NCBI GenBank assembly: GCA_045596565.1
Contig: JAZOCQ010000154.1
Span: 1 to 33,850 of the forward strand
From: Acutalibacteraceae bacterium
GTDB taxonomy: Bacteria > Bacillota > Clostridia > Oscillospirales > Acutalibacteraceae
Direction of reading: 5' to 3'
DNA length: 33,850 nt
Made by a program: the position numbers and the translations under genes. Positions 8,266 through 24,473 of the stretch are shown here, piece by piece; the stretch's first letter is position 1, and every line of letters begins with the position of its first letter. The notes beneath the pieces are model-generated. The model saw only the letters and a list, made by a program, of their open reading frames with translations, made no database searches and had not been told where the DNA came from.

Positions 8266-8291
8266 AAAAACTGCCGAAAGGCAGTTTTTTT
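8266..8291. terminator. Bidirectional rho-independent terminator
   Basis: AAAAACTGCC, loop GAAA, GGCAGTTTTT. It is followed by T-runs on both strands and lies between convergent genes. Confidence 0.8.
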
Positions 8292-8817
8292 ATGCTTTGT
8301 TTTCGCAAAAATGTGCAACGCCGTGCGCCATAAACGGTAGTACCAACATCACCAACGCATCAATGGCAAACAACGCCAACACGACCCACTTTTGCACCGA
8401 AAGTATGTATGCGCAAAATAATCCGGCCGCCACTGCTTGCAGTACGCCGGTCACCTGCAACAACACAATATCACTTTTCTTGCCGTAACTTGCCGCTACG
8501 GCTATCATGGGCAACGCCGCTTGCATACAAACCAACGTAGCCAGATACTCCGTCTGGAAACTACCAAAGACAGCTATGGCTACTAATAACAACGGTGAAG
8601 CGGCAAGCAAAAGTACCGTCAACACACGTGTAGCCACGCGCGCAGCCGTATATTTCCATAAAAAAACAGCCGGCAACGCCAACGCCACAGCCACTAACGC
8701 CAATAATAAAGATGTGATTTCCATCAGAGCAGACAGCGCTACCGTTATAAACGCAAATATTACCGTTGACTTTTTATACAACTCAATTGCTTCAGGTTTT
8801 TCTTTCCGCAGTGCCAT
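8290..8817 (-). CDS. Hypothetical polytopic membrane protein
   Basis: Track ORF 8290..8898. I prefer ATG 8817 after GGAGG (MALRKEKPEAIELYKKS). About 5 hydrophobic segments are visible. I recognised no family motif. Confidence 0.55.
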   Translation of the reverse strand: MALRKEKPEAIELYKKSTVIFAFITVALSALMEITSLLLALVAVALALPAVFLWKYTAARVATRVLTVLLLAASPLLLVAIAVFGSFQTEYLATLVCMQAALPMIAVAASYGKKSDIVLLQVTGVLQAVAAGLFCAYILSVQKWVVLALFAIDALVMLVLPFMAHGVAHFCENKA

Positions 8818-8870
8818 AACAACCTCCGAAACTTGTATTGCACATAGTATATCGTATTTTGTATCAAAAA

Positions 8871-9632
8871 TCAAGTAACACGCGTATGAATTGCCCACAC
8901 GTGCTTTTTCGTCGGCATAGTGGCATGACGACGAACACGCCGTATAATTTCAACACATACAGCAAAACGCGTAACCGAAAACGGTACGCCCGCCAACCAA
9001 AAACTACCAAAGTGTAAATGTAACAGTTGCCCGCTCCAACCTTTCGAGAGATAAAAACCACTAGAAATGGGAAAACCGCCCACTACTGCAGTTTCCAGTC
9101 GCCGCACGACAATCCACACCACTAACACACCCAGAACCGCCAATAAAATACCAATGCCCAAGAGCAACACTTTCACAACAGCTGTTTCTTCCCGCGCACC
9201 CCACGCTACTATAAACAGGGCCGGAAACAGTGCCGCCGCATACAACACGAAACGCCACACATCCCAACGGAGTTGGGATTTGATATGGGTGAGCGGATGC
9301 CGATAGACGCCAAAAAAACATTGCAGTAAGGTTCTGCCTTCCCACACAATATGCAAATTTTCCATCACACAGGTGTTTTGAGAGGGTGATGCCGTGAGCG
9401 TCGCGGCACGTTTTGCTGCTGCGTAATACCCCGCGTGTGCACAGGATACCAACACCCGATTGAAAAGCAAACTCCCACACAACAATGCCGTCTGCATGGT
9501 TGGCGTGAGCAGTACAAATCGCCGCACCAAAAATTCCACCGCTATCGGCAATAACCAACAAAGGTATGTCCACAACTGCATCACACAAATTTCCATACGA
9601 TGCGCTTTTGCAATCGCACAACTGCCCGCCAT
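8871..9632 (-). CDS. Hypothetical membrane protein
   Basis: Track ORF 8871..9707. The ATG at 9632 follows AGAGGGG. There are several hydrophobic segments (WLLPIAVEFLV, VLYAAALFPALFIVAW, LLLGIGILLAVLGVLVVWIVV). No motif was recognised and the start is uncertain. Confidence 0.45.
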   Translation of the reverse strand: MAGSCAIAKAHRMEICVMQLWTYLCWLLPIAVEFLVRRFVLLTPTMQTALLCGSLLFNRVLVSCAHAGYYAAAKRAATLTASPSQNTCVMENLHIVWEGRTLLQCFFGVYRHPLTHIKSQLRWDVWRFVLYAAALFPALFIVAWGAREETAVVKVLLLGIGILLAVLGVLVVWIVVRRLETAVVGGFPISSGFYLSKGWSGQLLHLHFGSFWLAGVPFSVTRFAVCVEIIRRVRRHATMPTKKHVWAIHTRVT

Positions 9633-9687
9633 ATACAACACCCCTCTTTCCATTACAGTATGGACAAAGAGGGGTATTTTTATCACG

Positions 9688-11004
9688 TTATACTCCCAGC
9701 TGTTCACGCAAGGTTGCTATACCATATAAAAACCAAATCACCTGTTCCGCATTACCGGCATCAATCGTTTTCCATGCATCGCCGTTTTTCTTCATTTTTT
9801 CCATATAAATGGTACCTTGATGGGTGCTGTTCAAAAACGAGAACGTGTCGTTAATATGGAACATATCCCCCGCCATCGCGGCGGCAGTAATATCCCAACC
9901 GACGCTTTTGCCCAGTATCCAATCTTTCACGGTACCGGAAGCACTGCATTCCACCGCGAGATACCCGCCGTTTTGGGTGCGTTGCCATAATTTTTCACGT
10001 GTATAGGCGGCAGTGTTTTGCAAAATTTGCGCATCCAATCCACTATACCCGCTCGCAAAGGCAGATAAGCATACCCAACTGACACCGTTTTCGGGGGTGG
10101 CATTGCCACCGTTAAAATACAGTTGCTCTAAGTATACCGTCTTGCCGTTCACTTCGCGGGTGAGGTTTTGTCGGATACCCGCCTGCAACTTATCCAATGT
10201 ACTTTGCCACAACACCATATCCACGTCTTTCCCGGTTTGCTTTGCGACCGCCACCATCTTTTCCAACGCCGCCGCTACAAAACTGTTGGTGAGAATATCG
10301 AAAACATCCACATAATCCGAGCCGTTATACAGTCTTGTATGGGTAAAACGGCGGTTGCGTACCAAACCTACATTCTCATAAAAATAGGTATCTGAGCAAA
10401 AAGCATCTGCTTCACGTTTCATCAATGCATACGTTTCGTCAAAATAGGCGGTGTCTTTACTTTTGAGAATATACAACGCCCATCCCAACACAAAATGTGC
10501 GCGTCCGTCTAATTCATCTTCGGTGCGCACGGTCGCGCGGTCGGCAGAAATGGTAAACGGTACGTATTGTAGGTTTTTCTCCTGCATAACGTCGGTGACA
10601 AAGCGCAGTGCTTTCCCCGCCGCAGCCGTTTCTCCCACCTTATCGGCCAAAATAGCAAATGCGCCGATAGACCGCACATATTCGCCCTTATACAATCCTG
10701 TCAGGGATTCCTGTAAAAAGCCATTTTCGGTCAATCGACCGAAAATGCTCTGATAACTGTCACGATATATATCCGCGACGTGGCTATCCTGCAACCGGGC
10801 ACGTACCGTATTTTCCACCGACCCCAAGGTCTTTACGGTCGTCGGCACGGTTGTGCTCGCAACAGTGGTGGTTGTCATTGTTGTGGTGGTAGCAGTGGTT
10901 GCGGTAACGCTCTGCTCAGTAACAGAAACACTATGTGTAGCAGACGGTACGGTACACCCGACTAACAATAACAAGCACAAACACAATGCTATAATTTTCG
11001 TCAT
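9688..11004 (-). CDS. Putative lipoprotein with a Thr-rich linker and a large uncharacterised extracytoplasmic domain
   Basis: The signal peptide carries a lipobox (MTKIIALCLCLLLLVGC). A linker TATTATTTTMTTTTVASTTVPTT follows, then a ~370-aa globular region. I cannot assign a family with confidence. Confidence 0.6.
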   Translation of the reverse strand: MTKIIALCLCLLLLVGCTVPSATHSVSVTEQSVTATTATTTTMTTTTVASTTVPTTVKTLGSVENTVRARLQDSHVADIYRDSYQSIFGRLTENGFLQESLTGLYKGEYVRSIGAFAILADKVGETAAAGKALRFVTDVMQEKNLQYVPFTISADRATVRTEDELDGRAHFVLGWALYILKSKDTAYFDETYALMKREADAFCSDTYFYENVGLVRNRRFTHTRLYNGSDYVDVFDILTNSFVAAALEKMVAVAKQTGKDVDMVLWQSTLDKLQAGIRQNLTREVNGKTVYLEQLYFNGGNATPENGVSWVCLSAFASGYSGLDAQILQNTAAYTREKLWQRTQNGGYLAVECSASGTVKDWILGKSVGWDITAAAMAGDMFHINDTFSFLNSTHQGTIYMEKMKKNGDAWKTIDAGNAEQVIWFLYGIATLREQLGV

Positions 11005-13120: not shown

Positions 13121-13471
13121 GGGGTCGTAAAGGTTTCGACGGGGATTGTGAGGTACGGTAAGCGAGTAGCGGTGCGGGCCCGCTTTAAAACCTGCAAACT
13201 TTAAAATTAAACGACAACAATACTGTTGCTCTGGCAGCCTAATTAGGCCGCCCGTCTTTACCCGAAGTACCACGGTTGGGATAAAGGCGTCGACTAGTGG
13301 TGAACGTGAACGGGAAGGTGCCACCCTCCCCGTCACGACGTAGTGGCTACCGTAGCAAATAGCCTGCCTATCGGCGATTTGTGAGGGGAATTCCAAAAGA
13401 TGAGGCTGCACTCGGAGAAAGCTGTATCAAGTGGTTTTCGGACAGGGGTTCGACTCCCCTCGGCTCCACCA
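13121..13471 (+). ncRNA. ssrA: Transfer-messenger RNA (tmRNA, SsrA)
   Basis: The 5' end GGGGTCGTAAAGGTTTCGACGGGG and the 3' end GGACAGGGGTTCGACTCCCCTCGGCTCCACCA form the tRNA-Ala-like acceptor and T-arm. The internal tag frame ends GAC AAC AAT ACT GTT GCT CTG GCA GCC TAA (13213-13242), giving ...DNNTVALAA, a typical proteolysis tag. Confidence 0.95.
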
Positions 13472-13587: not shown

Positions 13588-14211
13588 TCAAACGTATACG
13601 CCTCCACGGTATTTTCCCCAAACACTGCTCTCGATTTTGGGGTACCCTTTCAGCGAAACGGTATCCACCAGTATATCATCCGTATACTTATTAAAAGTGT
13701 GTAGGGTAACCGACTTTGCTCTGTAATTGATAAGTAAAGAAACCGCCTGTTCAAAATCAAACTGTCTGCACGCCAAATAGCATTTCCGTTTATCATATTC
13801 ACAAACACCGATATTTTCCCCTATTTTTACCTCTATCCAGCACAAATTACGCCGACCACGCTCATGGATGACAATGTCAGGACGAACATATTTCCCCATT
13901 TCGATAATTTCCAGCAAATCCGGTAATTCTTGCAAAAAAGACATTTGTCCACTGCCGTCATGCAAGTCAAACCGATACAAGCGATTATACTCAATTTCCG
14001 CAAACAGCAAGGGGTTTTCGGTTTGCTGTTGCAAGTAATACTCTACATAATTTGCCAACCGATGATTGATGGAGACCTCATGCACATCCCGTTCAAATAA
14101 GTATTCATCTCGCTCAAACAAGGCGGCAATCGCCGATATTAGACAAGCATTTGAGCAGTTGTTAAGCATATCCTCTTGCCGAAACCTACTGTATTTGAAA
14201 CAATTTTGCAT
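13588..14211 (-). CDS. Hypothetical protein with a PD-(D/E)xK nuclease-like motif
   Basis: Track ORF 13588..14412. I prefer ATG 14211 (MQNCFKY), preceded by a purine-rich AGAGGG. The stretch YVRPDIVIHERGRRNLCWIEVKIG fits a PD...(E)xK restriction-endonuclease-fold core. The region is AT-rich compared with its neighbours. Confidence 0.5.
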   Translation of the reverse strand: MQNCFKYSRFRQEDMLNNCSNACLISAIAALFERDEYLFERDVHEVSINHRLANYVEYYLQQQTENPLLFAEIEYNRLYRFDLHDGSGQMSFLQELPDLLEIIEMGKYVRPDIVIHERGRRNLCWIEVKIGENIGVCEYDKRKCYLACRQFDFEQAVSLLINYRAKSVTLHTFNKYTDDILVDTVSLKGYPKIESSVWGKYRGGVYV

Positions 14212-14224
14212 ACAAATACCCTCT

Positions 14225-14455
14225 TCATTCCAATCTATCTTCCAGTACATCCATAAACTGTGCCACCGCCAATTGTCCGCGGGTACAGTCCCACGCCAAC
14301 CGTCGCATCCATTTACGGTCGGTAGAGATATCACGCACCCGCAAACAACAATGTATCCCCCATAAGCGCAAACGATATGCTGCCATACCATAACAACAAA
14401 AAGTCGCACCATAATCGGTCACGATTTTTTCTTTTATCAACGTATATACAACCAT
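14225..14455 (-). CDS. Small hypothetical protein (76 aa)
   Basis: An internal ATG at 14455 of track ORF 14225..14539 is preceded by GAGG. It translates to MVVYTLIKEKIVTDYGATFCCYGMAAYRLRLWGIHCCLRVRDISTDRKWMRRLAWDCTRGQLAVAQFMDVLEDRLE. It ends 13 nt before the next gene. No family was assigned. Confidence 0.35.
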   Translation of the reverse strand: MVVYTLIKEKIVTDYGATFCCYGMAAYRLRLWGIHCCLRVRDISTDRKWMRRLAWDCTRGQLAVAQFMDVLEDRLE

Positions 14456-16273: not shown

Positions 16274-16304
16274 AAAAGCCACAGAACAAAGTTCTGTGGC
16301 TTTT
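16274..16304. terminator. Bidirectional rho-independent terminator
   Basis: AAAAGCCACAGAAC, loop AAA, GTTCTGTGGCTTTT. It lies between the convergent trmL gene and the long minus-strand operon. Confidence 0.85.
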
Positions 16305-16307
16305 GCT

Positions 16308-17048
16308 TTACAACCATTCTAATGCCATTGCAATCGCATGTGCCTTTTCAATCGACTGTATGCCGCCTACTGATTTGGCAATATGTCTACCCGCCACATC
16401 AAAGTTCGGGCGTCTGTCAGTCAAGTTATGACAATCACTGCCAAAAATCACCGGGACTCCCTGCTCTATCCACCGACGTACCCGTTTACGGGCGGGTTTA
16501 AACAGCATATCCTCGGTATTCACCTGCACCAAAGCATCGGGAAAGGTATAGAGTTCCGCGAAATCTTCGTCACTGTAGTAAGCGGCATACCGCGGTAAAT
16601 GTGCAAATATCGGTTTGCATCCTTGTTCAAAACACACCGCTTCAATTTCTTCTATCATCCAATTATCCAGCTGTGCATACGGCATTTCGAGCAGCATATA
16701 TGCCGACTCGCCGATGCACAGTTTTTGAATATCACGCGCGGTGGACAACCCTTTTTCCAAGCGCACCTCTGCACCTATAACCAAGCGTGGCACATCTTCG
16801 GTGTATGCCGATTGCAATGTTTGCAAAGCGGCGTCCCGCCGCCCCAAAAAAGCAGCGGGTGTTTCTGCATGCGCAAAATAATGCGGGGTAAGTAACACCG
16901 TTTGCACACCGTATTTGCGCGACAGCGTCAGCATTTCAACTGCTTGCTGGACATCCCGCGCGCCGTCGTCCATGCCCGGTAAAATATGGGTATGGCAATC
17001 AATCTTCAGAGGATTCTTGTTTGCTCGTATACACATACTTATATCCAT
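16308..17048 (-). CDS. PHP-family protein-tyrosine phosphatase (CpsB/YwqE-like)
   Basis: IDCHTHILPGMDDGA matches the CpsB N-terminal metal motif. LLTPHY and GSDCHN also fit the family. The start is ATG 17048 or 17036, and both overlap the 3' end of the kinase gene. The longer track ORF start at 17237 is unlikely. Confidence 0.8.
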   Translation of the reverse strand: MDISMCIRANKNPLKIDCHTHILPGMDDGARDVQQAVEMLTLSRKYGVQTVLLTPHYFAHAETPAAFLGRRDAALQTLQSAYTEDVPRLVIGAEVRLEKGLSTARDIQKLCIGESAYMLLEMPYAQLDNWMIEEIEAVCFEQGCKPIFAHLPRYAAYYSDEDFAELYTFPDALVQVNTEDMLFKPARKRVRRWIEQGVPVIFGSDCHNLTDRRPNFDVAGRHIAKSVGGIQSIEKAHAIAMALEWL

Positions 17049-17742
17049 ACCGTTTTCTGTAATATTGCCGTTGTCCTTCCTCGGCTTCATAACGATAGTC
17101 ATTGATAATGACGCCAAGCAGATTGCCTTGCACGTTCTGCACTCTTTCGGTTGCTTCGCGCAAGTCGTCATAGGTAGTGCTATTATACCGGCTGAGCAAC
17201 ACCACGCCCGCCGCACGCGCCGCCAACACCAACGCATCGGTAACGACGTTCACGGGGGGCATATCTATAAACACATAATCATATTGTTCGGAAACCGTGT
17301 CGAGCAAAGTCGCCATACGATTAGAACCGAGCAATTCCGAAGGATTAGGCGGAATTGGACCGGACGGTATCAAATCCACGCCGGGCGCCACTTCCTTTTT
17401 CACGCACGCCTGCCAATCGTCCGGATTGGCCAAATAACGAGTCAAACCTTCTCCTTTGAGCACGTGGAACATACGATGCAAAGTGGGTTTGCGCAAATCG
17501 GCATCAATCAACAGCACCTTACTACCGGTCTGCGCCATCATCACGGCAAGGTTGCCGCAAACAGTGGATTTCCCAACGTTGGGTTCGGGAGACGATACGA
17601 TAATAATCTTCTTTTGAATGGGCGCAAGCGAGAACAATAAATTCGCGCGCAACTTTTTATAAGCTTCTACCACAAGGGCTACGTCATTTTTGGCATAAGA
17701 CAAATACGATTTGCCGGCTCGTTTTTTACGCATCATTTCCAT
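16999..17742 (-). CDS. Bacterial tyrosine kinase, cytoplasmic ATPase subunit (CpsD/CapB/PtkA-like BY-kinase)
   Basis: Walker A is SSPEPNVGKST, Walker A' is LLIDADLRKP and Walker B is YDYVFIDMPP. The C-terminal tyrosine cluster is YYRKRYGYKYVY. Confidence 0.88.
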   Translation of the reverse strand: MEMMRKKRAGKSYLSYAKNDVALVVEAYKKLRANLLFSLAPIQKKIIIVSSPEPNVGKSTVCGNLAVMMAQTGSKVLLIDADLRKPTLHRMFHVLKGEGLTRYLANPDDWQACVKKEVAPGVDLIPSGPIPPNPSELLGSNRMATLLDTVSEQYDYVFIDMPPVNVVTDALVLAARAAGVVLLSRYNSTTYDDLREATERVQNVQGNLLGVIINDYRYEAEEGQRQYYRKRYGYKYVYTSKQESSED

Positions 17743-18442
17743 CTCCCTTTTTACGTGGTTTTACAGATTGTTCAAAATGCGGCACAACACCCAGTACAGG
17801 CACCTTCAAATTCTCTTTGAGCGCCGCTGTGGTTTTAACGGTTTTGTCTGTCAGATGTCGCAGCAAAACATACCCCGCCGCCGCCGCCGCGCCAAGCAAA
17901 AATCCAAGCGTCGTCATACGCGATACGTTCGGTGAGGTTTTTGAACCGGGCGAAGCCTTGCCAATCACCTTTATCGAACCGGCGGACACGACGTCGTTAA
18001 GCACTTGCGGTGCCAGTTCTGCCATCGCATTGCACACTTCTGCTGCGAAATTCGGGTCATCTGCCACTACTTTAATGCGCATCATAGCCGTATTGGCAAT
18101 GCTGGATAATGAAATCATATCCGAAAGCTCTTGTGCCGTCACGGGACGACTGAGCAACGGCAATATTCTATCAATGGTGGAGCGATTTTTCAGCACGTCT
18201 ACATATGTCAACGACAACCATTCCGCCGTCAGCAGATTGTTGTACGAGATATTATCCCCCGTATCCTGCATAGCGTCGGTCAAACTGGACACATACATTG
18301 TCACGCTGGTAACATATTTTTCCTCCATCAGGAAATTGGCTGCCGCGCCTAAGAGAATGGCACCGATGACAGCAAATATCAATAGCAATTTCCACTTAGA
18401 AATCAGCAGTCTGTATATAACCTGCAAATCTAACTGTTGCAT
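17726..18442 (-). CDS. Wzz/CpsC-type transmembrane modulator of the BY-kinase
   Basis: I prefer ATG 18442 after GGAGG. An N-terminal TM (LLLIFAVIGAILLGAAANFL) and a C-terminal TM (TTLGFLLGAAAAAGYVLL) bracket a periplasm-like domain. It overlaps the downstream kinase gene. Confidence 0.8.
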   Translation of the reverse strand: MQQLDLQVIYRLLISKWKLLLIFAVIGAILLGAAANFLMEEKYVTSVTMYVSSLTDAMQDTGDNISYNNLLTAEWLSLTYVDVLKNRSTIDRILPLLSRPVTAQELSDMISLSSIANTAMMRIKVVADDPNFAAEVCNAMAELAPQVLNDVVSAGSIKVIGKASPGSKTSPNVSRMTTLGFLLGAAAAAGYVLLRHLTDKTVKTTAALKENLKVPVLGVVPHFEQSVKPRKKGDGNDA

Positions 18443-18473
18443 ATAAAACGCCTCCACACTTTGTTTTTAAATC

Positions 18474-18947
18474 TTATGCTTTATACTGACGACCGCCTTT
18501 ACGACGGCAAACTTTTACCAAATAATACAACGCAAACACCAACAACATGGCGGTGACACCACCCGCGGCATCCAACCATACGTCCGCAATAGCCGGACCA
18601 CGCGCAGAAAATATCTGGATGGTTTCATCCACAAAGCCTACCGTAAAAATGAAGCCGATAATGTTGGATATATCGCGTCTGACAAGCTTGTGCCCGCACA
18701 AATGATACAGCGTCAACTCTAATCCCAACACAAAAAACTCAGCAAAATGCGCCAGCTTTCGCACCGTATGCGAAGTGAGTTCCAGCGGTATACCAATCGT
18801 TTGCAAGATGTTTTGTAAAAACGTATGTACCGTACCGCTTTGATTGAGCGAAGTATTCTTCCCCACTATCGAGTGACTGAATATAAACAACACCGTAGCA
18901 ATTATCAGCACCAGTAGCAGGATGCGTCCCACTTTTTTCTTATTCAA
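18474..18947 (-). CDS. VanZ-family membrane protein
   Basis: RKLAHFAEFFVLGL and DETIQIFSARGPAIADVWLDAAGG are VanZ-like motifs. I prefer the TTG at 18947, which lies 6 nt after GAGGAGG and overlaps the ABC gene stop (TTGAATAA). Confidence 0.7.
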   Translation of the reverse strand: MNKKKVGRILLLVLIIATVLFIFSHSIVGKNTSLNQSGTVHTFLQNILQTIGIPLELTSHTVRKLAHFAEFFVLGLELTLYHLCGHKLVRRDISNIIGFIFTVGFVDETIQIFSARGPAIADVWLDAAGGVTAMLLVFALYYLVKVCRRKGGRQYKA

Positions 18948-20592
18948 AGGAATCCTCCTCAAATCTGCCGTCCTGTATGCGCAACACACGGTCGCAAACC
19001 GCAGTAGTAGCAGGGCGATGCGAAACATAGATACAAGTAGTATCCGGTAATGCTCGCAAGTTTGTCAAAACACGCTGTTCAGTTTCAGCATCCAATGCAG
19101 AGGTCGCCTCATCCAACAGCAATATCGGCGCACCGTATAACACGCCACGTGCGATAGACAGACGTTGCAACTGCCCGTCGGACAAACCCATACCTCTTTC
19201 ACCGAGCATCGTATCCAAGCCGTTGGGCAATTCACGGACAGTATCCGCAATTTCTGCCACTTCCATCGCTTGCCAGATTTCCGCATCAGTGGCATCTTCA
19301 CGGCACAACATCAAATTTTGCTTAATGGTACCCGAAAGCAAGAAATTCCCTTGCGGCACATACGAAAAATACCGTCTGGTATCCGCACCCACGGGTATTT
19401 CTCCCGCATTGGTTTCACATACTAAGTTGCCGCTTTCCGGCTCCAAAAAACCAAGCAACATTTTAAACAATGTACTTTTGCCGATACCGGAATGGCCGAT
19501 AATGGCAATCGACTCTCCCGCGCACACCGCAAAATTGGCATTTTGAAACACCATATCACGGTCATATGAAAAACTGATATTCGTCATTTTCAGGCTACGG
19601 AATTTTGCTGCGGGAGCAATCGCAACATGCGGTTCATCCGGCAAATTTTCCAGTTCCATCAGACGTTCCGCGGAAGAAAGCATATTGTAATACTGCGGCA
19701 TAATACCCGACATACTGCGAAACGGCATTTGCACCTGCTGTACAATCTGTAAAAATGCCATCAAGGTACCAAACGTAATCATACCGCTGGCCAAGCGCCA
19801 GGCACCCCACGCCAACGCAATGTAATAACAACCCGTAAACAACAGATACATCGCCATATTGGCAAAACTGCTGGCATAACTGCGTTTCATACGATATTTG
19901 TAATTTACGGATTGCAGATTACGCAAACGGCGGCGGATAAACGGCACCATTTGAAACGCCTGCACCACCATCCAATTTTCAATACTTTCCTGCATGAAAA
20001 AGCGCGTATCCCCCTCGGATTCTTGACAACGCCTGTGTAACTTCTTAAGTTTACCGCCGTATAGGCGACTGAACAGTAGAAGTATCACACCTACCGTCAG
20101 CGCCACAACCGTAAACAGTTTGTCCATTACCACCAACACGACCAGTGCGGCAATCAAGCGGGTAAACAGAGATACGATATGCGGAATCAAGCTTGCTACC
20201 GTACCGGCAGTCACCGAGACGTCACCCGTCAAGCGATGCAACACATCACCCGAGGTGTACGCACTCACCTGTTGCCATTTTTTGCGGTATAACGCCGTAA
20301 ACACCCGCTCTTTCATACGCATCTCTATACGGGTGATATTATACGCTTGCAACACATGGTTGAAAACACCGAACACCGCCTGCAACAAAACGATGCCGAC
20401 AAGCAACCCGCTCTGCGCCCACATATCACCCGGCATCTGTCCGGTAGCCATATCCACCACGCGCTGTGACACCAACGCAAACGCCACATAACTCAGTGAA
20501 ATTAACACACCCACTAAAGTCTGCACCGCAATGCCGCCCAAAGAGCGACGTGCAATTTGCCATATCCAATTGTGCGTTGTTGTTTGTTTCAT
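18940..20592 (-). CDS. ABC exporter, fused permease/ATPase (type I exporter, MsbA/McjD-like architecture)
   Basis: I prefer ATG 20592 (MKQTTTHNWIWQ). A six-TM N-terminal half is followed by Walker A GHSGIGKST, signature LSDGQLQRLSIARG and Walker B ILLLDEATSALD. Confidence 0.88.
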   Translation of the reverse strand: MKQTTTHNWIWQIARRSLGGIAVQTLVGVLISLSYVAFALVSQRVVDMATGQMPGDMWAQSGLLVGIVLLQAVFGVFNHVLQAYNITRIEMRMKERVFTALYRKKWQQVSAYTSGDVLHRLTGDVSVTAGTVASLIPHIVSLFTRLIAALVVLVVMDKLFTVVALTVGVILLLFSRLYGGKLKKLHRRCQESEGDTRFFMQESIENWMVVQAFQMVPFIRRRLRNLQSVNYKYRMKRSYASSFANMAMYLLFTGCYYIALAWGAWRLASGMITFGTLMAFLQIVQQVQMPFRSMSGIMPQYYNMLSSAERLMELENLPDEPHVAIAPAAKFRSLKMTNISFSYDRDMVFQNANFAVCAGESIAIIGHSGIGKSTLFKMLLGFLEPESGNLVCETNAGEIPVGADTRRYFSYVPQGNFLLSGTIKQNLMLCREDATDAEIWQAMEVAEIADTVRELPNGLDTMLGERGMGLSDGQLQRLSIARGVLYGAPILLLDEATSALDAETEQRVLTNLRALPDTTCIYVSHRPATTAVCDRVLRIQDGRFEEDSFE

Positions 20593-20594
20593 AT

Positions 20595-21089
20595 TCAAAC
20601 CTTTTTTGTGAACAGTTTGCGCAACGCATGTACAATACGCGCAGCAAATCGTCTCCCTTTCAAAATAAACGGACGCAACGGTAAAATTGCTATCCACAAT
20701 TTAACATACAACCGATAAAAGCGTGAACGGCAGGAAATATATTTCCCCTTGCGGTAAAAACCGGCGGCTACCGCAACCACAGCAGAGCAAGGTATCCCAT
20801 ATTCCTTTTCCCATTGTCCGTCTCCACACAATGTATACGAAGTAGCGCCCAAATCCACAATACGGTGCAATACAAACTGTCCGTTTGCACGACGGTATAA
20901 CGGCACATCCCCTATTTGCAAGGATTCCTTTTCCGCTTTTTGCAGTACCACCTGGTCACGCCGATGGCGTAACAACGGATACATACTGTTACCGGTAACG
21001 GTCAGCACCACCTGCGAACCTTGGGCCATACAACTCTCCATCACCGGAGACAGTTCTTCCAAACTACTGAGCACAACTTGAGGTGCCAC
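20595..21089 (-). CDS. S24/S26-family peptidase-like protein, Ser/His (SipW/ER-type) variant without an N-terminal membrane anchor
   Basis: The GTG start at 21089 lies 8 nt after GGAGG. GNSMYPLL holds the Ser (codon 20985-20987). IGDVPLYRRANGQFVLHRIV puts a His (codon 20865-20867) where bacterial SPase I has the general-base Lys. The N-terminus is not hydrophobic. Confidence 0.65.
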   Translation of the reverse strand: MAPQVVLSSLEELSPVMESCMAQGSQVVLTVTGNSMYPLLRHRRDQVVLQKAEKESLQIGDVPLYRRANGQFVLHRIVDLGATSYTLCGDGQWEKEYGIPCSAVVAVAAGFYRKGKYISCRSRFYRLYVKLWIAILPLRPFILKGRRFAARIVHALRKLFTKKV

Positions 21090-21092
21090 GGC

Positions 21093-21359
21093 TTATTCCT
21101 CCAAAATGCCGTTGTCGCGCAACGCTTGCACGAATGTTTCCACATCCTGCCGTGCGCGTTCTTCAGCCACATCATATTCCGCGAGCAATGCCGCCGTCAA
21201 AGCATTTACATCACTTTCTTTTGTCAGTTCTTCCCAAAGAAAAGCACCGGTTTCGTTCAACGTAATCATACAACGGAAATCCACCGTTTGTGCACCGACC
21301 GGTACCACGATATAATTTTCTCCGACAATTTTTAAAACAAATCCTTCTTTGAGTTTCAT
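21093..21359 (-). CDS. PqqD-family protein (RiPP recognition element-type peptide chaperone)
   Basis: ITLNETGAFLWEEL...LTAALLAEYDVAEERARQDVETFVQALRDNGIL fits the PqqD winged-helix pattern. I prefer ATG 21359, 9 nt after AAGGAGG, over ATG 21368. Confidence 0.75.
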   Translation of the reverse strand: MKLKEGFVLKIVGENYIVVPVGAQTVDFRCMITLNETGAFLWEELTKESDVNALTAALLAEYDVAEERARQDVETFVQALRDNGILEE

Positions 21360-21374
21360 ATCGGACATCCTCCT

Positions 21375-22241
21375 TTATTCGCCAAACAGAGCGTTGCGCG
21401 CCGTATAGGCAGCATCCTCTTCCATCGTACAGGTCATCACGTAAACCGGCACTCTCTGTGCCAATTCTATCATACGGTCGGCCAGAATTGACCCCACTTT
21501 AGCATCATGATACGGTTGCACTACCTGACTTTGCAGGTGACACATACTTTCCGTAAAATCCAGACGGCGCAACGCATTCTGCTCGCCGCGGGTGACGAAC
21601 ACCACTGCGTGCAACGGCACGTGCTTATTCAGATTTAAACTGGTCTTACCACTCCACGGCGTACCGTACATTTGAATGCCGTCTTTTTCAAAACGCAAAG
21701 CGGGTTTATCGTCGTTGATATGCTCCACGTCGTCGCCGAAACATTTTTTCCACAAACCCGTATGGGTAGATTTTCCTGTCCCTGACGGCGCTGAAAAAAT
21801 CACACCGCACCCTTTATACGCAATCGCCGAACCGTGCAACACCGCACCGCCCAGCACTGCCAATCTGCAAGCAAAATCAAAACCCGCATACGAATGTTCC
21901 CAATCACCCGCACGCAACCCTTCCAATTGGTCGCCTGCAATAACGGTATTCGTTTCGGAAAAATCCGGTTGATACACACAAGACTGAAACAACTTGTCCG
22001 GATTTTTATAATGCATATAATGGCAATACTTACCGTCCGGCAATTTCACAACCGTTACGTTGCGAAACCGCAATACCTCCTCGCCATGTGCAGGCTGTAT
22101 ATCTTCTGCGGTGGAAACGGTGATACGCATAGTAGCAGCGCTGTCCGCGGGTGCAAAATACGCGGGATATCTTTCATAGAAAAAAGCGACATCGCCCATC
22201 TCCATATCAATCGGCAGCCCTGCCACTAAAAGCCGTTGCAC
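21375..22241 (-). CDS. HPr-kinase-C-terminal-domain-like P-loop protein (HprK-related / lasso-peptide-kinase-like)
   Basis: LHGSAIAYKGCGVIFSAPSGTGKSTHTGLW resembles the HPrK/P C-domain P-loop region. It lacks the HPrK N-terminal domain. The probable start is GTG 22241, 7 nt after GGGAGG (the track uses GTG 22247). Confidence 0.65.
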   Translation of the reverse strand: MQRLLVAGLPIDMEMGDVAFFYERYPAYFAPADSAATMRITVSTAEDIQPAHGEEVLRFRNVTVVKLPDGKYCHYMHYKNPDKLFQSCVYQPDFSETNTVIAGDQLEGLRAGDWEHSYAGFDFACRLAVLGGAVLHGSAIAYKGCGVIFSAPSGTGKSTHTGLWKKCFGDDVEHINDDKPALRFEKDGIQMYGTPWSGKTSLNLNKHVPLHAVVFVTRGEQNALRRLDFTESMCHLQSQVVQPYHDAKVGSILADRMIELAQRVPVYVMTCTMEEDAAYTARNALFGE

Positions 22242-22278
22242 GCGCACACCTCCCTATTTTCCAGCATACACATAAATA

Positions 22279-22307
22279 ATTATATATACTTTAATATGAA
22301 TTGTCAA
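22279..22307 (-). promoter_or_regulatory. Consensus sigma-A promoter driving the HprK-like/PqqD/peptidase/ABC operon
   Basis: The minus strand reads TTGACA (22307-22302), an exact 17-nt spacer, then TATAAT (22284-22279). It sits immediately after the tRNA terminator. Confidence 0.65.
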
Positions 22308-22321
22308 TGAATAATGTGCAT

Positions 22322-22352
22322 GAAAAAAATCCAAGTCCACAGACTTGGATTT
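22322..22352 (-). terminator. Rho-independent terminator after tRNA-Gly
   Basis: The minus strand reads AAAAAATCCAAGTC, loop TGTG, GACTTGGATTTTTTT. Confidence 0.8.
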
Positions 22353-22354
22353 TT

Positions 22355-22428
22355 TGGAGCGGAAGACGGGAATCGAACCCGCATATTCAGCTTGGGAAGC
22401 TGACGTTCTGCCACTGAACTACTCCCGC
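22355..22428 (-). tRNA. tRNA-Gly (anticodon CCC)
   Basis: The reverse complement is GCGGGAGTAGTTCAGTGGCAGAACGTCAGCTTCCCAAGCTGAATATGCGGGTTCGATTCCCGTCTTCCGCTCCA. It folds as a 74-nt cloverleaf with a 7-bp acceptor, D-arm GTTC/GAAC, anticodon stem TCAGC/GCTGA with loop TTCCCAA, the GGTTCGATTCC T-loop and an encoded CCA. Confidence 0.93.
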
Positions 22429-22476: not shown

Positions 22477-22788
22477 TCAATTTACACCCGCCACTTTCTC
22501 GCGGCAGTAGGCACAGTAAGTATCCCATAAATATTGACGGCTTTGCTCCAACCCCTGTGCAGTCATGGGAAAACACTGCTGCTCCACAGATTGCGCAACC
22601 GTGCTGCAAAACAAGCCGTACCATACCGTTACCAACAGTTCACCCGTATCCTTTTGCGGCACAATTTTATAATTCATTTCCTTGTAACTGCCGGTGTACG
22701 GATTGCCCTGCTCAAAATAATACACTTTCGGATATGCAAACGCACCGTTTTCCAAGCGACTCACCTTCTTTGTCCGATATGTGCCCAT
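22477..22788 (-). CDS. Hypothetical protein (103 aa)
   Basis: The open frame has plausible composition (MGTYRTKKVSRLENGAFAYPKVYYFEQGNPYTGSYKEMNYKIVPQKDTGELLVTVWYG...YCAYCREK). No motif was recognised. Confidence 0.45.
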   Translation of the reverse strand: MGTYRTKKVSRLENGAFAYPKVYYFEQGNPYTGSYKEMNYKIVPQKDTGELLVTVWYGLFCSTVAQSVEQQCFPMTAQGLEQSRQYLWDTYCAYCREKVAGVN

Positions 22789-22895: not shown

Positions 22896-24377
22896 TTATA
22901 ACGGAATATCAATATCCGGGGCTTTTTGCTCTTTTAACGGGGCAGGGGCTTCCATTTCCGCATCAAAGAAATCCGGTTGTATAAACGATATTTCCGTCAT
23001 GAAGTCACTCACAACGTCGCTTTGGCGGGACTCATCAGATGATGTGGTTTTGGACTTTTTTGCCCTAGGACGATGCACGTACCGCACATACAGGAACACC
23101 GCACCGCCGATACAAAGCAAACCGATAACCAAGAAGGTAACTGCCCAACCCACAGCATGACCGGTTAAAGCGCCCAGAACGCTCCCTTTAATTCCCATCA
23201 CGACAACCGTTCCCACGGGATACATGGTTTCAAAACGGAAGAAGCCGTCTTTCGAGATGTGTGCATACACCGGTTTGGAAACGCCGTCCGCCGTTACCAC
23301 CGATACGGCAATGGTCTGCGCACCGCGCATGGCGTGCGGCATAGGCAACTGGATAACATACTCACCTTGTGCCACGTTAGAAACGTTATAAAAAACTGCA
23401 TCCTGCGCATCGCGAATTTGCAAAGATAAATCCAAAACCATACGCTCAATATTGGCAGCGTCAGCAAGCGATAATACCGCATCCTCCGTCATAGCGGCGG
23501 CAATCTGTTCATCCGTCACCGTTGCTTGCGAAATTTTTACGGACATCGCCAACCCACCGTTTATATCTCCGAGCATCCCGGCATAACATTCAGGTGTCAG
23601 CAACAATTTAGCGGTTTGTGCAAAATCATTTTGTTCCACTTTGAAAGCATCCAAAATACCGCTGTCAAAGGAAAAATCCACCGTCAGATGGGTTTCCTCT
23701 TTACCGGTGGTGCCGGTGGCGGTATACATTGTCAGCTTTTCAGTATTCTGCGTTTTTTTGGTTGTGGTTGTTACTTTGCCGGTGTAAACAGTGGTCATAC
23801 CGGCGGTTGTGGTCTGATTGTCGGTAGTAACAGTTCCCGTTGCAGTTGTAGTGGTAGTAGTGTTGCCACCCTTCTTGCCTACTGCTGCAGCCGCAGCCTT
23901 ATACGACACGTTGCCCACCAACGTCAATTCGCTGGAGCAATAAATGTACGTGTCATCCCGCGGAAATGCATATAAAAAAACGGCATATCCCTGCGCATCG
24001 GTAGTAACAGCGGGCATTTTAGTCGAACCGATTTGCAGCGACACGGGAACACCGACGGCAGGTGCGCCGGACGTGGTCATCAACCGTGCAGCAACTTTAC
24101 CGTCTTTTTCCATAATCACCAATTTCGTTTCCGCAGAGGTTATCCCACCGGGTGCATCCGCAGTGGTACCGTCTGTATCCGGGACGGATGTCGTGGTGCT
24201 CTCCTGTTTGGTGGTCGTGTCACCCGTATCCGTCGTGGTAGTAGCGATACCAACATCAGTGGTAGTAGTGTCAGTATCGGTTGTAGTGGTTGTAACGTCC
24301 TGCGCGAACACATTGACCGAGCCAAACACCGTGCACAGCAGCATCACCGCAACACAAACGACGATATATTTTTTCAT
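22896..24377 (-). CDS. Thr-rich cell-surface protein, type I membrane topology (signal peptide, two poly-Thr linkers, C-terminal TM anchor and cytoplasmic tail)
   Basis: I prefer ATG 24377 after AGGAAGG. The signal peptide is MKKYIVVCVAVMLLCTVFGSVNVFAQ. TTTTTDTDTTTTD and GGNTTTTTTATGTVTT linkers separate folded segments. The C-terminal TM WAVTFLVIGLLCIGGAVFLYV is followed by RYVHRPRAKKSK and a ~55-aa acidic tail. Confidence 0.7.
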   Translation of the reverse strand: MKKYIVVCVAVMLLCTVFGSVNVFAQDVTTTTTDTDTTTTDVGIATTTTDTGDTTTKQESTTTSVPDTDGTTADAPGGITSAETKLVIMEKDGKVAARLMTTSGAPAVGVPVSLQIGSTKMPAVTTDAQGYAVFLYAFPRDDTYIYCSSELTLVGNVSYKAAAAAVGKKGGNTTTTTTATGTVTTDNQTTTAGMTTVYTGKVTTTTKKTQNTEKLTMYTATGTTGKEETHLTVDFSFDSGILDAFKVEQNDFAQTAKLLLTPECYAGMLGDINGGLAMSVKISQATVTDEQIAAAMTEDAVLSLADAANIERMVLDLSLQIRDAQDAVFYNVSNVAQGEYVIQLPMPHAMRGAQTIAVSVVTADGVSKPVYAHISKDGFFRFETMYPVGTVVVMGIKGSVLGALTGHAVGWAVTFLVIGLLCIGGAVFLYVRYVHRPRAKKSKTTSSDESRQSDVVSDFMTEISFIQPDFFDAEMEAPAPLKEQKAPDIDIPL

Positions 24378-24473
24378 GCGTATATGCACCTTCCTGTCGA
24401 AAAATGAAACTTTTTTATTAGAATACCACATCGCAGCAAAAAAGTAAATAATAATATTTACAAACCGAGCCTA

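Follow-up and report, generated by a model that had tools for sequence, protein, structure and literature searches.

We analyzed a stretch of 33,850 bases from an Acutalibacteraceae bacterium (contig JAZOCQ010000154.1; hereafter the window), in which four closely spaced genes encode a P-loop kinase (K), a PqqD-type recognition element for peptides that are made on the ribosome and modified after translation (RiPP recognition element, RRE; B), an S26-like serine peptidase (S), and an ATP-binding cassette (ABC) exporter (D). This cassette, its promoter, and the envelope genes that follow it are all located on the minus strand. The four proteins probably constitute the maturation and export core of a ribosomal peptide pathway that resembles, and forms a sister clade of, the pathway of the linear polyphosphorylated peptides (LPP) described by Popov et al. 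(Nat Commun 2026;17:6633; PMC13381572). The features of the cassette and of its upstream boundary are as follows:

22322..22428, minus strand: tRNA-Gly(CCC) and terminator hairpin, the upstream boundary of the cassette
22279..22307, minus strand: sigma-70-type promoter, exact TTGACA-17-TATAAT
21375..22241, minus strand (open reading frame opens at 22247): lppK-like kinase, predicted P-loop protein with the PEPCK/HprK fold, Pfam family ScmC
21093..21368, minus strand: lppB-like discrete RRE of the PqqD family, PF05402
20595..21089, minus strand: lppS-like leader peptidase of the endoplasmic reticulum (ER)/archaeal-type S26 class, TIGR02228, Ser35/His75/Asp90
18940..20592, minus strand: lppD-like MsbA-type fused ABC exporter, ABC_membrane and ABC_tran

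The promoter (22307..22279) is the sole 12/12 match to TTGACA-17-TATAAT in the window, and no such match arose in 100 dinucleotide-preserving shuffles. It is located immediately downstream of tRNA-Gly(CCC) (22428..22355) and of a hairpin followed by a T-run (-16.5 kcal/mol, z = -5.8); this tRNA gene occupies the position at which relatives of the cassette carry a precursor gene. The gaps between the four open reading frames (ORFs) amount to 6, 3, and 2 nt. Both the perfect promoter and the spacing of 2–6 nt had been stated in an original prediction made from the DNA letters alone, and both are borne out.

The start of the kinase gene is better placed at GTG 22241, 7 nt after a GGGAGG ribosome-binding site (RBS), which yields a protein of 288–290 amino acids containing the motif SAPSGTGKST. 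The family PF27840 ('ScmC') is on record for the kinase and for all its relatives. A search of a local Pfam copy gave no match at E < 0.01, including PF07475 (Hpr_kinase_C), and the single NCBIfam match is TIGR04249 (ScmC; E = 3e-4, 20.1 bits against a cut-off of 125). Among 24 homologues with 39–68% identity, the segments LHGS, FSAPSGTGKSTH, NDDKP, and GTPWSGK vary little or not at all, and the Walker A, His, and DD motifs do not vary. The AlphaFold model (predicted local distance difference test score, pLDDT, of 92) finds ATP-PEPCK as its full-length best structural match in the PDB, and only its C-terminal half resembles HprK/P (template modelling score of ~0.3–0.5). As judged from this model, the kinase comprises two domains and belongs to the PEPCK/HprK superfamily of P-loop kinases, without being a genuine HprK/P.

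The RRE consists of 91 residues and matches PF05402 (E = 1.4e-19), which we assume to be the RRE model used by Popov et al. Its best sequence match in the PDB is LppB (9x8z, E = 7e-4), slightly ahead of the lasso peptide RRE PbaB1. In the crystal structure of LppB with its leader peptide (9x8z), Asp70 holds the leader Tyr through a hydrogen bond, and Asn33 and Phe74 hold the leader Pro (PMC13381572). Alignment to chain B of 9x8z reveals that the RRE of the window keeps the equivalents of LppB N33, Y60, D70, and F74.

The S26-like peptidase (164 residues) displays the motifs GNSMYP, LHRIV, and GDG, and 30 homologues all retain residues G33, S35, M36, P38, H75, R76, G89, and D90. It remains below threshold against Pfam S24 (E = 1.3e-3) and matches TIGR02228 (sigpep_I_arch) with E = 7e-8, under the curated cut-off. 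The structural model (pLDDT 89) is most similar to human SEC11A/C in the PDB, followed by SpsB and LexA; a profile search against PDB sequences reached SEC11C at E = 0.3 only. There is no N-terminal transmembrane anchor: in the model, a short soluble helix (residues 10–22) precedes Ser35, and the C-terminus is built of two long basic amphipathic helices. Ser35, His75, and Asp90 correspond to the LppS triad S29/H68/D93. The exporter (550 residues) is a fused ABC_membrane/ABC_tran protein devoid of a peptidase domain, with the MsbA-type models TIGR02203 and TIGR02204 as its top NCBIfam matches. The four assignments made in the original prediction (an HprK-like P-loop protein, a PqqD protein, a Ser/His S26 peptidase, and a fused ABC exporter) are thus upheld. 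The genuine HPrK/P that it had entertained as an alternative finds no counterpart here, as PF07475 gives no match and the full-length model is PEPCK-like; the domain and fold tests exclude a pairing of a genuine HprK/P with a signal peptidase of the housekeeping type.

The original prediction had proposed a hitherto undescribed system for peptide modification, processing, and export. The cassette does appear to encode such a system, but its kind is no longer undescribed, since the LPP pathway was published in 2026 (PMC13381572). LPP clusters were found starting from an archaeal-type signal peptidase encoded beside lasso clusters in capsular polysaccharide loci, and display the gene order lppA-K-B-S-D-N, for the precursor LppA, the HprK-like kinase LppK, the RRE LppB, the signal peptidase I-like LppS, the MsbA-like exporter LppD, and the nucleoside triphosphate (NTP) transferase LppN (here N). 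The family was defined from about 126 clusters, mostly from Bacilli, and co-localization with capsule loci, including a tyrosine autokinase, was noted (PMC13381572). In B. subtilis, with the LppA of P. alginolyticus, LppK was shown to put 1–4 phosphates on core Ser3. LppS takes off the 27-residue leader after Thr-1, and the unphosphorylated precursor is poorly cleaved; LppB is required for this cleavage, the S29A, H68A, and D93A variants are dead, and LppN was inactive in the heterologous host (PMC13381572). The core models used in that work are TIGR04249, TIGR04352, and TIGR04355 for the kinase ('HprK kinase'), TIGR02228 for the peptidase, and TIGR02203/4 for the 'MsbA transporter', and among these TIGR04249, TIGR02228, and TIGR02203/4 match the proteins of the window.

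The enzyme set and the order K-B-S-D are common to the window and to LPP clusters, and both types often reside within capsule or polysaccharide loci in which a tyrosine autokinase is also encoded. Unlike LPP clusters, the window copy lacks lppA and lppN and is joined in one probable operon with genes for VanZ and CpsC, CpsD, and CpsB; its host belongs to a lineage of Clostridia, whereas those of LPP are Bacilli. The clade comparison was made by pairwise BLASTP against the sequences of Supplementary Data 1 of Popov et al., so that the E-values can be compared only roughly with the threshold of the published sequence similarity network (SSN; links at E < 1e-23). The S26 peptidase is 24–32% identical to four members of SSN cluster 1, the characterized LPP group (E = 5e-5 to 6e-9), and 31–40% identical to cluster 4 (Dehalobacter, Anaerocolumna; E = 9e-25 to 3e-29), with cluster 9 at E = 1e-18. 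The RRE likewise shares 40–43% identity with the cluster-4 RREs. Cluster 4 is listed with RREs under 'RRE others' and with no LPP precursor determined, and the published text analyzes cluster 1 only (PMC13381572). On these sequence comparisons, the proteins of the window belong to a sister clade of the characterized LPP proteins, nearest to SSN cluster 4. The cassette is like LPP in its working, yet it lies outside the characterized LPP family, because it falls outside both the network group and the precursor definition used in the paper itself. One genome, that of Paenibacillus contaminans, carries a canonical cluster-1 LPP cluster together with a cassette of the present type that has its own peptide (locus L027).

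Three further known systems invite comparison. Lasso clusters of the paeninodin/pseudomycoidin type share a PqqD-type B1 RRE with affinity for a [Y/W]xxP leader, a Ser-phosphorylating HprK-like kinase, and an ABC exporter, and often also carry an NTP_transf_5 enzyme. The analogy drawn in the original prediction holds. The window lacks the macrolactam synthetase and the B2 protease, with an S26 serine peptidase in the place of the latter, and the product would be linear; the earlier statement that no cyclase, B2 protease, or radical-SAM enzyme is present agrees with our finding of none among the window ORFs. The SynChlorMet/HPr-rel-A systems (TIGR04248–04250, TIGR04352–04355), which are known from comparative genomics only, contain the same pairing of a ScmC/HprK-related P-loop protein with PqqD. 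The window has neither their radical-SAM/SPASM partners nor a second HprK-related kinase, and has an S26 peptidase and an exporter instead; besides the 20.1 bits against 125 for TIGR04249, TIGR04248 scores 23.6 bits against a cut-off of 100. Finally, the SipW/SEC11 ER-type signal peptidases share with the S26 protein the fold and the Ser-His-Asp motifs (GxSMxP, HR, GD). The window protein has no N-terminal membrane anchor, is linked to an RRE and not to Sec substrates, and reaches 16.9 bits against the SipW model NF046067, for which the cut-off is 190.

The conservation of the cassette was examined in related loci (denoted by L and a number) that were collected for comparison. Eighty of them were taken from different species, with Acutalibacteraceae, Oscillospiraceae, Clostridium pascui, two Paenibacillus species, Faecalimonas, Acetivibrio, Syntrophomonadaceae, and Desulfitobacteriaceae among the sources, and counts were made over 82 non-redundant loci. 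Homologues of the kinase form 4,234 clusters at E ≤ 1e-3. Co-localization of the genes, which the original prediction had named as a point to check, is evident: the kinase, PqqD, and S26 genes occur together in 60 of the 82 loci, and are joined by the exporter gene in 29. A PF14907 nucleotidyltransferase gene is present in 10 of the 82 and also in L088. Two architectures can be distinguished. Architecture A, the type of the window, follows K-B-S-(D)-(N), and architecture B follows B-(S)-D-[~315-aa secreted protein]-[small peptide]-K-[SLH protein]-Wzz-CpsD-VanZ, where SLH denotes S-layer homology.

A small-ORF search of the conserved neighborhoods, also proposed in the original prediction, revealed a peptide with a YxxP leader motif upstream of the kinase gene in relatives. 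An ORF of 33–65 codons is present in 15 loci, located 180–290 nt upstream of the kinase gene or, in one of them (L059), upstream of the gene for the RRE; in three further look-ups the peptide was each time encoded directly upstream of the kinase. Examples are L024:9780-9881, L027:9813-9914, L055:9767-9931, and L079:5341-5523, and the peptide of C. pascui reads MKKEYEAPVVEIEEYEISNIISTSGGVDTGEDF. The peptides share the N-terminus MKK.YEKP.hEh.EhEh..I. A profile built from them retrieved 259 clusters from a protein collection, all unnamed 'hypothetical' proteins; the peptides measure 33–71 residues and correspond to no Pfam or NCBIfam family. Among the peptides listed, Y..P is found within the first 22 residues in 120 of 120, and 66 of the 120 end in Ser. 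One subgroup is short with acidic C-termini (…GEDF/GDEF), and another, of ~60 residues, has a conserved ENIAA(V/L)(P)TTVYKG segment.

The YxxP motif is common to the leaders of LPP and to the precursors of the relatives of the window, and it equals the [Y/W]xxPx[L/V/I] signature to which RREs of the lasso type bind. The remainder of the leader differs, as the LPP consensus is YxxPxVLxHQxIxFETxxS (Px9Fx[T/A]) and that of the relatives MKK.YEKP.hEh...NI[A/I/C][A/S/T]. The short peptides contain a conserved h-x-[S/A/T] tripeptide (NIIS, CICS, DIIA, NIAA), which, judging from the alignments, would fit the -3/-1 rule of signal peptidases. In the peptides of 33–49 residues, a Ser is found at +2 after this tripeptide (TS, ES, LS, MS), an arrangement that may echo the cleavage of LppA after FET and its phosphorylated Ser3. 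A hidden Markov model (HMM) of nine published LPP leaders matched nothing in the window or in ~90 related loci, and none of the relatives' peptides. In the metagenome-assembled genome CAZMHL01, a short contig (L007) carries a kinase gene of the window type (53% identity), and an architecture-B locus with a peptide (L051) is present as well.

The window itself has no such peptide. Scans of its six frames for YxxP leaders with regular expressions and HMMs found none, and the HMM of the relatives' peptides matched nothing in the window, in L089 (84% kinase identity), or in L090 (63%). Clustering of all ORFs of 18–95 codons from 85 loci yielded, besides the YxxP peptides, two groups only, namely an ORF of a phage-like block and a small membrane protein encoded beyond a tRNA methyltransferase gene. 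The original prediction had reported no evident precursor beside the cassette, and the regular-expression, HMM, and small-ORF scans of the window agree with it. Two candidates were considered and rejected. The first is an ORF of 92–103 codons upstream of the tRNA (22755..22477, minus strand; 92 from a TTG start), the invariant N-terminus of which, FxYPK[VL]..F..GN.[YF]TGS.K, is superficially similar to an LPP leader. It is confined to a narrow syntenic clade, with five loci in which it is syntenic with the cassette, and has 97 representative relatives; homologues align over the full length, some of them repeated 7–13 times in tandem within proteins of 1,025 and 2,330 residues, and neither a Pfam family nor the LPP-leader HMM matches it. 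Because of this full-length homology, the tandem repeats, the narrow clade, and the lack of a leader-HMM match, it was taken for a small folded protein. The second, 'MGKYVRPDIVIHE' at 13899, is internal to an ORF of 274 codons. This ORF (13588-14412) follows the tmRNA gene (13121-13471, plus strand) on the opposite strand and matches no family; it contains a PD..E.K-like motif (RPDIVIHE…IEVK) and may encode a nuclease belonging to an element that has inserted at ssrA.

Downstream of the exporter gene, the minus strand continues with four envelope genes and a terminator:

18474..18947, minus strand: VanZ-family membrane protein, VanZ match
17726..18457, minus strand: Wzz/CpsC-type modulator of chain length or bacterial tyrosine kinase (BY-kinase), PF02706; TIGR01006 E = 1.8e-28
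16999..17742, minus strand: CpsD-type tyrosine autokinase (BY-kinase), TIGR01007 at 175 bits, over the cut-off
16308..17048, minus strand: CpsB-type PHP tyrosine phosphatase, PF19567 E = 1.6e-28, from residue 79 of a long ORF
16274..16304, minus strand: intrinsic terminator, 14-bp stem and T-run

The TTG start of the VanZ gene (18947) overlaps the stop of the exporter gene (TAA, 18942..18940) and lies within the last codons of the exporter (TTGAATAA), with a GGAGG RBS 7 nt before it; a longer ATG-initiated VanZ ORF from 19028 is probably not used. The genes for Wzz/CpsC, CpsD, and CpsB come after VanZ with short gaps or overlaps, and the start of CpsB, either 17048 or 17036, overlaps the end of cpsD. 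The terminator (16304..16274; -22 kcal/mol, z = -5.9) directly follows CpsB, and no comparable one was found on the minus strand from 22279 to 16304. Because of the perfect promoter, the short gaps and overlaps, and the placement of the only strong terminator after CpsB, the simplest reading is that K-B-S-D and VanZ-CpsC-CpsD-CpsB are probably transcribed as one eight-gene operon. No glycosyltransferase, flippase, or polymerase gene is found near the Wzz/CpsC-CpsD-CpsB trio (16308-18457), the next gene being trmL on the opposite strand, and the trio is therefore more like a stand-alone tyrosine-kinase module of the TkmA/PtkA/PtpZ type than a capsule locus.

The eight-gene block is shared by relatives with 84%, 63%, 53%, and 46% kinase identity, and one at 48% has the block without CpsB. 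In 16 of the 82 loci, Wzz/CpsD/CpsB/VanZ genes adjoin the cassette; at least four different gene orders occur among them, and 6 of these 16 carry a precursor gene. SLH or other surface proteins are frequent neighbors of the cassette. In the window, a protein of 511 residues (22896-24431, minus strand) combines a signal peptide with long low-complexity stretches rich in Thr and a membrane segment at its C-terminus, and gives weak matches to surface-protein models only; surface proteins (SLH, cohesin/Flg_new, the ~315-aa secreted protein) flank the cassette in other lineages too. In at least ten loci of the Acutalibacteraceae type (including L010-L014, L020, L030, L031, and L040), K-PqqD-S26 stands directly downstream of a co-oriented phage-like block, for example L001:369-7996 and L002:917-7872, that comprises genes for an S24 repressor, for a large terminase, and for a portal-like protein, as well as a conserved basic ORF of 45 codons. 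Carriage of the cassette by phages was rejected: only one match was obtained in 2.9 million viral contigs, and hence the cassette itself is not usually phage-borne.

By homology with the experiments on P. alginolyticus, the following sequence of events may be anticipated. The PqqD-type RRE would bind a small precursor peptide at the YxxP motif of its leader, and the PEPCK/HprK-fold kinase would use ATP to phosphorylate a Ser near the leader-core junction, possibly several times. The RRE would offer the junction to the cytoplasmic, membrane-associated Ser/His/Asp peptidase of the S26 type for a cut after a small residue, and the MsbA-like ABC protein would export the resulting linear phosphopeptide. 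Because the S26 peptidase and the RRE are distant kin of their cluster-1 counterparts, the chemistry of Ser polyphosphorylation is transferred to the cassette by analogy. Since the leader-binding and all catalytic residues are conserved and no precursor lies in the window, we infer that the substrate is encoded elsewhere in the genome and acts in trans.

Several results weigh against assigning the cassette to an LPP-like peptide pathway. No precursor-like ORF is found in the window, or within ±10 kb in close relatives, and no NTP_transf_5 (PF14907) gene is present among the window ORFs. The S26 peptidase is only distantly related to that of the studied cluster 1, and the RRE matches the cluster-1 LPP RREs at E = 1e-6 to 1e-13 with 32–50 bits. 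The scores of the kinase with TIGR04249 and of the peptidase with TIGR02228 both stay under the curated cut-offs, and the kinase profile has no significant match among PDB sequences. For LPP themselves, the final product and the biological role are not established (PMC13381572).

The missing precursor gene would be explained if the cassette had been re-purposed to another substrate, a protein or an envelope component such as a surface or regulatory protein of the VanZ-CpsC-CpsD-CpsB module. Six related eight-gene loci are without a precursor in cis, the coupling to VanZ is tight and probably translational with a single terminator after CpsB, and the recurrence of Wzz/CpsD/CpsB/VanZ (16 of the 82 loci, at least four gene orders) and of SLH and surface proteins beside the cassette points the same way. 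We nevertheless regard this change of substrate as unlikely. The RRE retains the residues that hold a YxxP leader, and the S26 peptidase and RRE are 43–51% identical to those of precursor-bearing loci. As precursor-bearing clusters are linked to Wzz/CpsD too, the envelope link needs no different substrate, and some canonical LPP precursors are themselves listed as encoded elsewhere in the genome (PMC13381572, table). A precursor and an NTP transferase that were not found in the window, a tRNA-Gly at the site where relatives have the precursor, and the patchy histories of LPP-type clusters, rich in gain and loss (PMC13381572), could also be read as the signs of an evolutionary remnant, an LPP-like cluster that has lost both genes and makes no product. 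That the four genes are such a remnant is very improbable, considering that all four ORFs are intact, that the catalytic residues are invariant across homologues with 39–91% identity, that the eight-gene arrangement is kept down to 46% kinase identity, and that the promoter is perfect and the ribosome-binding sites are good.

Another view would make the genes tailoring and export accessories, acting in trans, for a complete lasso cluster of the paeninodin type at another site in the genome. The lasso clusters of Firmicutes typically contain HprK-like kinases, PqqD RREs, and MsbA/McjD-like exporters, and LPP and lasso clusters often occur in one genome, but their RREs discriminate between the respective precursors (PMC13381572). 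Neither a cyclase nor a B2 protease is encoded in the window or among the conserved neighbor families of the 82 loci, the cassette has its own leader peptidase, which is of a different fold, and the score of the RRE is 50 bits with an LPP RRE but 20 bits with a lasso RRE taken from the same data set; a role in a lasso pathway can hardly be credited. We therefore retain the assignment of the cassette to a maturation and export core of the LPP-like type. The probable co-transcription with VanZ-CpsC-CpsD-CpsB suggests that the role of the peptide is tied to the control of the cell envelope or capsule. A more specific proposal is that the core has lost its precursor in cis, was wired into the VanZ/Wzz/BY-kinase/phosphatase operon, and turns a trans-encoded or non-canonical substrate into an exported phosphopeptide that regulates, or sends signals to, the tyrosine-kinase control of envelope polysaccharides; we put it forward tentatively, as rather unlikely to hold in full.

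The remaining genes of the window encode housekeeping functions, namely RuvC, an IscS-like protein, ThiI, CinA, UppP, tmRNA, PurC, TrmL, MnmA, and TrmO, together with a U32 peptidase, ZapA, an ABC-F protein, MgtE, and a CDF protein. Between the gene for a helix-turn-helix regulator and uppP, three successive overlapping ORFs of 202, 278, and 438 codons (8290-11004, minus strand) are without Pfam or NCBIfam match.

The kind of system, LPP, is already known; what is new is the sister clade, the precursor family, and the link to an envelope module. With thousands of kinase homologue clusters, this sister family in gut and rumen Clostridia is much larger than the LPP set, and it brings its own, unannotated precursor peptides. 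Its recurrent link to Wzz, BY-kinase, and VanZ parallels the association with capsule loci reported in Bacilli (PMC13381572). The many cassettes that have no neighboring precursor raise the question of substrates acting in trans, and call for caution with genome-mining tools that require an adjacent precursor. The system offers a tractable route to the role of linear phosphopeptides in the cell envelope, and an envelope-regulating phosphopeptide, if true, would be the first biological role for LPP-like RiPPs.

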